Notes: generated from the letters alone by a model not told the origin. A stretch of DNA of 59,306 nucleotides from Eubacteriales bacterium (GCA_029004515.1 JAQVYH010000002.1:1-59306), one strand, 5' to 3'; shown: positions 17,212 through 17,579, counted from the stretch's first letter. A program made the numbers and translations.

Positions 17212-17281
17212 GTCCACATAATGAATGAACATAGATGCAAAAGGTGAGAGAAGGAGGTTGTGATAAACTATCACAACCTCC

Positions 17282-17525
17282 CAGCGTGTCGATAACCCTA
17301 TAGACACGCTGGCAGACTGCGAAAAAGGAAGTTAAATTCGACATTCCCGACATCGTCGGCGTACGAGGGTACGGTAGAGGTCGGGAAGGGTGAAAGCAAG
17401 CAATGGCGTAGGTTTTTCGATAAAACCTACGCCATTATAATTATATATTATTATTTTTTATAGAACAAGCAAGAGATAAATAATTTCTATTTTGCTTGTG
17501 GTTGAACGACTTTTTCGACGGTCTG
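17282..17525 (+). repeat. Family A ~240-bp structured interspersed element, copy 1 (orientation defined as CAGCGTGTCG -> CGACGGTCTG)
   Basis: Near-identical to copies at 27871-28111 and 33627-33867. Flanked by identical 29-bp palindromes at 17253-17281 and 17526-17554. Confidence 0.9.
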
Positions 17526-17579
17526 GGAGGTTGTGATAAACTATCACAACCTCCCTTTAAATTGCATATGTACCTTTGA

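Follow-up and report, generated by a model that had tools for sequence, protein, structure and literature searches.

The hairpin-duplicating targeting of the ISBma2/ISCno1/ISCbo5 group of insertion sequences is, to our knowledge, documented in genome papers only, and we know of no mechanistic study. ISCbo5 of Clostridium botulinum group III (ISBma2 in C. novyi, annotated as ISCno1) belongs to the IS1182 family and is 1612 bp long, with the ends cag/ctg (Skarin et al. 2011, PMC3098183). In 16 of its 17 copies the direct repeat is a hairpin of 15-44 bp situated at a gene end (PMC3098183, text and Table S3). IS1272 of staphylococci, the best-studied member of the same family, also goes to terminator hairpins but removes part of them (PMC4923244), so that behaviour varies within the IS1182 family. 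An attack at the feet of a cruciform, by which the whole stem-loop is duplicated, has been proposed (PMC5678879, Fig. 13 pathway b). A terminator-duplicating MITE is not mentioned in a 2024 review of prokaryotic MITEs (PMC10969869).

The element described here is very probably a non-autonomous MITE derived from an IS1182-family insertion sequence of the ISBma2/ISCno1/ISCbo5 group. An earlier note on this DNA had held that a described IS or MITE family would remove its novelty; at the level of the family such a relationship is found, while this particular MITE is without a database or literature match of its own.

In the window (the whole stretch of 59,306 nt that was analysed), blastn and a repeat search agree on five copies of 238-244 bp and no sixth, at the positions given in the earlier note. 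Copy 1 occupies 17282-17525 on the plus strand (244 bp); copy 2 is at 19854-20091 (+, 238 bp), copy 3 at 27871-28111 (-, 241 bp), copy 4 at 33627-33867 (-, 241 bp) and copy 5 at 42338-42577 (-, 240 bp). Further copies were absent from the window when both end motifs were searched with up to three mismatches (chance expectation 0-0.3 matches), and a covariance model of the 5' domain run on the window found no additional ones. Identity over all five ranges from 84 to 97%: copies 1, 3 and 4 are near-identical, as had been noticed (about 97% mutual identity), and copies 2 and 5, at 84-88% identity to the rest, are indeed more diverged, slightly more so than the by-eye figure of roughly 10%. The tips read CAG...CTG, as previously described, with the exceptions of the start of copy 5 (CAT) and the end of copy 4 (CTA). 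The element is non-coding, in agreement with the earlier reading: no credible open reading frame was found in it, at a length of 238-245 bp across the family. There is no GC-skew switch between the plus-strand and minus-strand copies, and an origin-linked strand bias was rejected.

The architecture is best followed in copy 1. The left end is a terminal hairpin, H0 (17282-17311, +), formed by the terminal inverted repeat CAGCGTGTCGATA and an inverted copy of CAGCGTGTCGATA. H0 has 12 pairs and is found in every copy; 97.5% of its cells are paired, with one compensatory change, in copy 5. It is followed by an inner left repeat, CAGACTGCGAAAAAG (17313-17327, +), which is the partner of the right-end repeat; the invariance of CAGACTGCGAAAAAG across lineages is partly by construction, the repeat having served as a search pattern. 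The P2 domain (17337-17394, +) consists of an 18-bp covarying stem, inside which lie an internal loop that is conserved and, at the apex, the hairpin CGTAC-GAGG-GTACG. An internal 15-bp hairpin and an A/T-rich tract come next (17402-17436, +), and the element closes with the right terminal inverted repeat CTTTTTCGACGGTCTG (17510-17525, +). The left tip reads CAGCGTGTCGATAAAC and the other end CGACGGTCTG; the left tip matches the reverse complement of the right tip, CAGACCGTCGAAAAAG, at 11 of 16 positions, and the inner left repeat CAGACTGCGAAAAAG matches the right tip at about 13 of 16. The hairpins listed in the earlier note are all present, and the fold of copy 1 is far more stable than that of shuffled sequence (-95.8 kcal/mol against -54 ± 4; z = -9.8).

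A feature that the earlier note had missed is a duplicated terminator hairpin around the copies. The whole terminator hairpin is directly repeated around seven of eight complete copies (in the window and in three other uncultured Clostridia MAGs), and a scripted comparison of the flanks gives duplication lengths of 29, 23, 36, 21, 24, 22 and 23 bp. The duplications are complete stem-loops, with all stem bases paired, and are symmetric about the centre of the palindrome. When the copies are aligned with their flanks, the same palindrome stands directly before CAGCG... and directly after ...GGTCTG, and the flanking hairpin differs from copy to copy. Those of the window copies are located at gene 3' ends. 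The upstream hairpin has lost its T-tract because CAGCG comes directly after it, and the downstream hairpin has kept the tract and scores as a terminator.

Around copy 1, the span 17253-17554 contains two identical 29-bp terminator hairpins, GGAGGTTGTGATAAACTATCACAACCTCC, with a 13-bp stem of -19.5 kcal/mol: the upstream duplicate (17253-17281, +), without a T-tract, is identical at 29 of 29 positions to the downstream one (17526-17554, +), which retains the T-tract and looks like a functional terminator. Copy 2, an older insertion that is antisense to both neighbouring genes, is the exception to the pattern; the hairpin AAAAGCCACATATTCTGTGGCTTTT adjoins its left end (19829-19853, +) and the downstream duplicate has decayed. 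Copy 3 has the terminator of the gene at 28146-28628 on one side and a THF riboswitch on the other, with a 23-bp hairpin both upstream (28112-28134, -) and downstream (27848-27870, -; 22 of 23 positions identical). Copy 4, between convergent degV and spoVT-like genes, has a 36-bp hairpin upstream (33868-33903, -) and a downstream duplicate (33591-33626, -) that is identical at 32 of 36 positions, with a flipped loop and two substitutions. Copy 5, the most diverged, is flanked by a 21-bp hairpin upstream (42578-42598, -) and downstream (42317-42337, -; 20 of 21 identical).

Some further observations concern these flanks. The THF riboswitch (27595-27700, -; above the Rfam gathering threshold) lies upstream of the S component of an ECF transporter, and copy 3 is inserted just upstream of it. 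The loops of the duplicated hairpins of copy 4 read TTAT and ATAA on the same stems (33591-33626 and 33868-33903). A comparable situation is seen in an orthologous terminator of the relatives described below, whose loop is AAAA in locus L036 (2965-2990) and TTT in loci L040 and L001, the stems being unchanged.

Relatives outside the window were collected by scanning a genome collection with one invariant exact 20-mer, which gave nine loci, distributed over four MAGs of uncultured Clostridia, of which one is of goat rumen origin; the invariance of this 20-mer across lineages is by construction. Among eight pattern matches in a metagenome scan, one was a true relative and seven were chance 19-mers. 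Since the relatives were found through an exact 20-mer, the true range of the family is probably wider. Three of them are complete (L001:4468-4712, L007:1696-1938 and L009:7031-6800) and are about equal in size to the window copies, with hairpin duplications of 24, 22 and 23 bp, respectively. Many contigs end inside or beside the element (L002:1-169, L004, L005, L008, L010, L018, L019 and L032); the repeat therefore breaks short-read assemblies, and MAG copy numbers are underestimates. Besides the five window copies, the element occupies at least four loci in MAG JAZQIO and three in JAZOOC; with such copy numbers and with its terminal inverted repeats, it conforms to a MITE.

One locus, L006, holds a longer variant. 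Considered as a possible remnant of an autonomous element, it proved to have no credible open reading frame, and the DNA that makes it longer is part of another repeat family. That second repeat, also non-coding, occurs in the window at about 15265-15470 and about 51990-52190 (+) and once in the related genome L020 (2760-3000); its core reads ...CAAACYTCRCCNCTCGGNGTAYAC...ACACCTTCGGG... and ...AACGCAAGTGTTT..GCAAAA..GCGATARTRAAGGCTTTAGCA, and the fragment nested in the long variant lies at L006:150-400. An Rfam scan of the stretch around it gave no match over the second repeat, the only hit being a sub-threshold SpF39 upstream of it (E = 0.0024, 15155-15263).

Empty sites show directly that the element is an insertion. 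In the related strain at locus L040, the hairpin AGTGCTGAGCTTTGCTCAGCACTT is present once between the same two genes where L001 has the order hairpin-element-hairpin; the uninterrupted sequence reads ...TAAATAATGCAAAAAAGTGCTGAGCTTTGCTCAGCACTTTTTCAC..., with a single hairpin. Synteny between L040 and L001 extends to both sides, comprising a PfkB kinase gene and a convergent M23 peptidase gene, and L036, L038 and L039 likewise have a single hairpin after the kinase gene. The hairpin repeats are therefore target-site duplications. The element is mobile, and its target-site duplication is defined by structure. This clean empty site was taken from a relative of L001 because the window genome is without a close relative in the protein collection, where six of nine flanking-gene clusters hold only the window's own protein. 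Other comparisons agree: L043, syntenic with the window from 13.7 to 24.8 kb, carries single hairpins that differ in sequence at the sites of copies 1 and 2 and lacks the element there, and L020 and L021 lack the element at the sites of copies 4 and 5. The insertion is present in all relatives of L009, and a Logan assembly of the same strain as the window carries the same insertions.

These comparisons leave next to no probability for the reading in which the element is not mobile, being either a local intergenic duplication or a vertically inherited regulatory sequence. The clustering of all five window copies within 25 kb and the rarity of the family in public data would suit such a reading. 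It is already refuted by the clean empty site in a syntenic relative, and against it stand also the different flanking hairpins, each duplicated, the copies at unrelated loci in four other MAGs and the relatives of the window genome without the element at the sites of copies 1, 2, 4 and 5. The local segmental artefact that the earlier note had contemplated, should the sequence be confined to 25 kb, is dismissed by the copies in other MAGs and by the empty site, and its description of an interspersed element at gene 3' ends is supported.

Two other features of this part of the genome were seen in comparison with L020 and L021. A segment of 8.4 kb (33946-42337, from the spoVT-like gene to a UDP-GlcNAc 2-epimerase gene) is inverted relative to both; it has a negative GC skew in an otherwise positive region, and its ends adjoin copies 4 and 5. 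Homologous recombination between these copies was ruled out as the cause, since both are on the minus strand and simple recombination between them cannot explain an inversion. An alanine dehydrogenase gene (34684-35847, -) lies between the spoVT-like and cytidylate-kinase-like genes and is missing from that position in L020 and L021.

The earlier note had been unable to match the element to any IS end, and this is where the present analysis departs from it most clearly: the tips, the left hairpin, the subterminal repeat and the duplication of a whole hairpin are those of the ISBma2/ISCno1/ISCbo5 group. Four autonomous IS1182-family elements were recovered for comparison; all have CAG...CTG tips and a hairpin at the left terminus, and the hairpins duplicated around them measure 14-32 bp. 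The ISCbo5 copy of plasmid p3BKT015925 (NC_015418, about 35707-37319) begins with CAGGCTGTTGATAAACATAATTTGTCAACAG..., ends with ...TTTTTGAACAATCTG and has a 30-bp hairpin duplication. An E. faecium element, with a transposase 42% identical, has the tips CAGACTGTAGACAAAG...CTTTTGTCTACAGTCTG and a 25-bp hairpin duplication, and an element of B. cereus pBCXO1 (54% identical) has one of 32 bp. The fourth is a metagenomic IS1182 element (about 62% identical) present at more than ten sites; its tips read CAGACTGCTGACAAAG...CCTG, and its hairpin duplications measure 14-26 bp. The transposases of the matches carry PF05598 (DUF772), PF01609 (DDE_Tnp_1) and PF13751 (DDE_Tnp_1_6) and are annotated as IS1182 family. 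At three sites of the metagenomic element (L051, L053 and L060) the left and right hairpins do not match each other, though each matches a flank of another copy, which suggests recombination between IS copies or assembly chimeras.

In all four autonomous elements the left-terminal hairpin consists of the left inverted repeat and an adjacent inverted copy, the same architecture as H0; this is a feature derived from the four elements recovered here and not a published definition of the family. The left tip of the MITE is identical to the left repeat of ISCbo5 at 13 of 16 positions, and CAGACTGCGAAAAAG resembles the left inverted repeats CAGACTGCTGACAAAG of the metagenomic element and CAGACTGTAGACAAAG of the E. 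faecium element. The right 35 nt of the MITE match the right end of the E. faecium element at 24 of 35 positions (shuffle p about 0.003). When the left 50 nt were aligned globally with the autonomous ends, the result was not significant against shuffles (p 0.08-0.36), so the family similarity rests on the terminal 16-mers and the shared architecture. Direct repeats of whole hairpins, variable in length and placed at gene 3' ends, are common to the MITE and the autonomous members.

With ISCbo5/ISCno1/ISBma2 the MITE shares insertion at terminator hairpins, whole-hairpin repeats (15-44 bp in ISCbo5, 21-36 bp here) and the host class, Clostridia. It differs from ISCbo5 in being about 240 bp and not 1612 bp long, in having no transposase gene and in carrying an extra inner copy of the left repeat; the P2 domain, moreover, is found in the MITE only and not in ISCbo5 or the other three autonomous members. 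IS1272 resembles the MITE in its structure-directed insertion at terminator or inverted-repeat hairpins without a sequence consensus, and some of its copies have a tandem extra left-end copy (PMC4923244, PMC5678879). In contrast to the MITE, it replaces or deletes part of the hairpin, makes no target duplication, is autonomous and measures about 1.9 kb. The bacterial MITEs RUP, Correia/NEMIS and MITEAba12 are likewise small non-coding elements present in multiple copies, which have terminal inverted repeats and duplicate their targets. They need a transposase in trans, and their transcripts fold into stable RNA structures. Their duplications are short and fixed (2-9 bp) and made at sequence-defined sites, whereas the MITE described here duplicates a variable palindrome defined by structure.

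Group IIC introns insert directly after the stem-loops of intrinsic terminators, mostly in sense orientation, and recognise the shape of the hairpin. Unlike the MITE, they make no target duplication, are at least 600 nt long, have domains V and VI and move by an RNA-mediated route. A class C group II intron was rejected on the absence of any Intron_gpII or group-II-D1D4 match in Rfam, on boundaries that read CAG...CTG where such an intron has GUGYG...AY, and on the presence of a target duplication. A tRNA-derived SINE was rejected as well, ARAGORN showing no tRNA-like sequence, and there is no supporting motif for a junction promoter (checked by eye), a ribozyme or a bridge RNA; a bridge-RNA guide was dropped because the internal loop of P2 (5 nt / 3 nt) is too short for a programmable guide.

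Genes with PF05598, PF01609 or PF13751 are absent from the element and from the window. As the element has no transposase reading frame, it is a derivative and not a member IS. More generally, Pfam scans of 30 window reading frames found no transposase, reverse transcriptase or integrase and housekeeping genes only, upholding the earlier statement that nothing in the window could mobilise the element. The genes identified by Pfam include dnaB, ftsH, tilS, hpt and those for murein enzymes and glycosidases, among others, and the other large reading frames are counterparts of genes annotated in the syntenic locus L020. Searches with the element by blastn against PLSDB plasmids and INPHARED phages gave no match, nor did four pattern scans of viral contigs with left, core and right motifs. 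Rfam, searched with one window copy and three relatives at the gathering score and at a permissive E (<=10), returned noise only and no family, in accordance with the earlier note; elsewhere in the window, a bacterial large SRP RNA (45314-45579, +) scores above the Rfam gathering threshold.

The longer autonomous relative with the same ends that the earlier note had proposed to look for did not emerge: among nine genome and eight metagenome pattern matches there is no autonomous IS with the exact ends of the MITE, only MITE-sized copies, and tblastn of the ISCbo5 transposase against all collected loci gave no match. The mobilising transposase is therefore inferred. A search for homologues yielded at least 7964 proteins of the IS1182 family, a number too large for the parent to be singled out.

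Could a different enzyme, cutting at both borders of the palindrome, have mobilised the element? A Cas1-like integrase or casposase, or a single-strand HUH or tyrosine transposase that reads the hairpin, might be considered: the duplication coincides with the palindrome, the same geometry as in the duplication of a CRISPR repeat, no transposase is linked to any copy, and signals of single-strand structure are present. Elements of the HUH type (IS200/IS605, IS91) make no target duplication, however, and the duplications made by casposons are fixed at 14-15 bp. Given also that the tips, the left-end hairpin and the type of duplication match IS1182 elements encoding DDE transposases, this explanation is regarded as very improbable.

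On the IS1182 reading, a DDE transposase of this family, encoded elsewhere in the genome or now lost, would act in trans on an element that it would recognise by its CAG...CTG tips, its left-terminal hairpin and its subterminal repeat. Shape and not sequence determines the target, namely the GC-rich palindrome of an intrinsic terminator. With its two 3'-OH ends the element may attack the two strands at opposite feet of this palindrome; the simplest setting would be a palindrome extruded as a cruciform. Gap repair would then copy the whole stem-loop onto both sides. An attack of this kind would give a duplication that equals the hairpin in length (21-36 bp) and is symmetric about the hairpin's centre. 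As the feet are close together only in a cruciform, the stagger would track the length of the stem-loop and not a fixed number of base pairs.

Once the element has inserted, what was a bidirectional terminator becomes a pair of unidirectional ones, both directed towards the element, so transcription from the upstream gene should cross the element and stop at the distal hairpin. Judged from the sequence, the genes are not disrupted and termination is predicted to be restored after the element, which probably forms a 3' extension of the upstream gene's transcript. In 12 of 13 copies, a gene of the same orientation has its 3' end next to the left end of the element, an orientation bias that is marginal after convergent gene pairs are discounted (estimated p about 0.04).

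Independent folding of nine sequences gave H0, a closing helix and the long P2 stem in all nine. The earlier note had left open whether the complementarity between the inner left repeat and the far end was a long-range closing helix or a subterminal inverted repeat. The left strand of this helix is invariant and the changes in its right strand are uncompensated, and it is best read as the inverted repeats of the family. The P2 domain behaves differently. It takes up roughly one quarter of the element and has the strongest support from covariation of any part. Covariation was counted on a 12-sequence alignment of the 5' 120 nt; these sequences sample about six independent lineages, all ascertained with one 19-20-mer. 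Changes on both sides are seen in 14 of the 18 pairs of the P2 stem, while the sequence of the apical loop is fixed, the conserved parts being the internal loop and the apical CGUAC-GAGG-GUACG. In P2, 93% of cells are paired, compared with 35-39% with slid partners, and the covariation score was reached by none of 500 shuffles. G-U outnumbers A-C by 20 to 6, and the sense strand folds better than its complement by 14-20 kcal/mol in eight of nine sequences, the exception being L009; together these indicate that the structure belongs to one strand. The internal hairpin that follows P2 is wholly different in sequence between lineages, and is nevertheless there in four of five, with L009 having only a weak one. 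A covariance model of the 5' domain had no match in the four autonomous IS1182 elements.

It is possible, therefore, to see in the element a functional structured RNA module, an sRNA or 3'-UTR element, which spreads by means of IS1182-type ends and of which P2 is the selected payload. Such an RNA might be needed in cis or in trans for transposition, or might stabilise or regulate the upstream mRNA; this is compatible with a MITE and adds a function to it. The covariation with a constant apical loop, the sense-strand structure and the recurrence of an internal hairpin of unrelated sequence after P2 all speak for it, as do the position of the left end after co-oriented genes and the upstream hairpin without a T-tract, from which read-through is expected. 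Nevertheless there is no Rfam match at any threshold, the orientation bias is marginal without convergent pairs, and a covarying hairpin could equally be a site for a transposase on DNA or single-stranded DNA, or a relic of the parent's 5' UTR; the number of lineages, about six from a single 19-20-mer, is also small. We consider such a module unlikely, and retain the IS1182-derived MITE as the preferred reading. Within it, P2 may be a leader or 5' UTR inherited from the parent IS, a transposition site or an exapted RNA. A more specific proposal, that the 5' domain (left-end hairpin, A-rich linker and P2) is a functional module of single-stranded RNA or DNA with the fixed apex GUCGG / CGUAC-GAGG-GUACG / GUA, absent from the autonomous IS1182 elements seen so far, is put forward as a doubtful one, less probable still.

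The assignment to the IS1182 family explains a seemingly orphan repeat family of uncultured rumen and gut Clostridia as a non-autonomous offshoot of an insertion sequence. Copies of the MITE and of the autonomous elements together represent natural insertion sites with duplications of 14-36 bp that are always centred on a palindrome, which is useful evidence for a structure-measuring (cruciform-foot) mode of integration. The practical effect of the family is that short-read assemblies are broken and that structured 3' extensions are probably added to housekeeping transcripts. Only the covarying P2 domain may yet turn out to be of interest: if the 5' domain is indeed a functional module, it might serve in cis as a cofactor of structure-directed transposition or, alternatively, be an exapted 3'-UTR RNA placed at many operon ends by the splitting of terminators.
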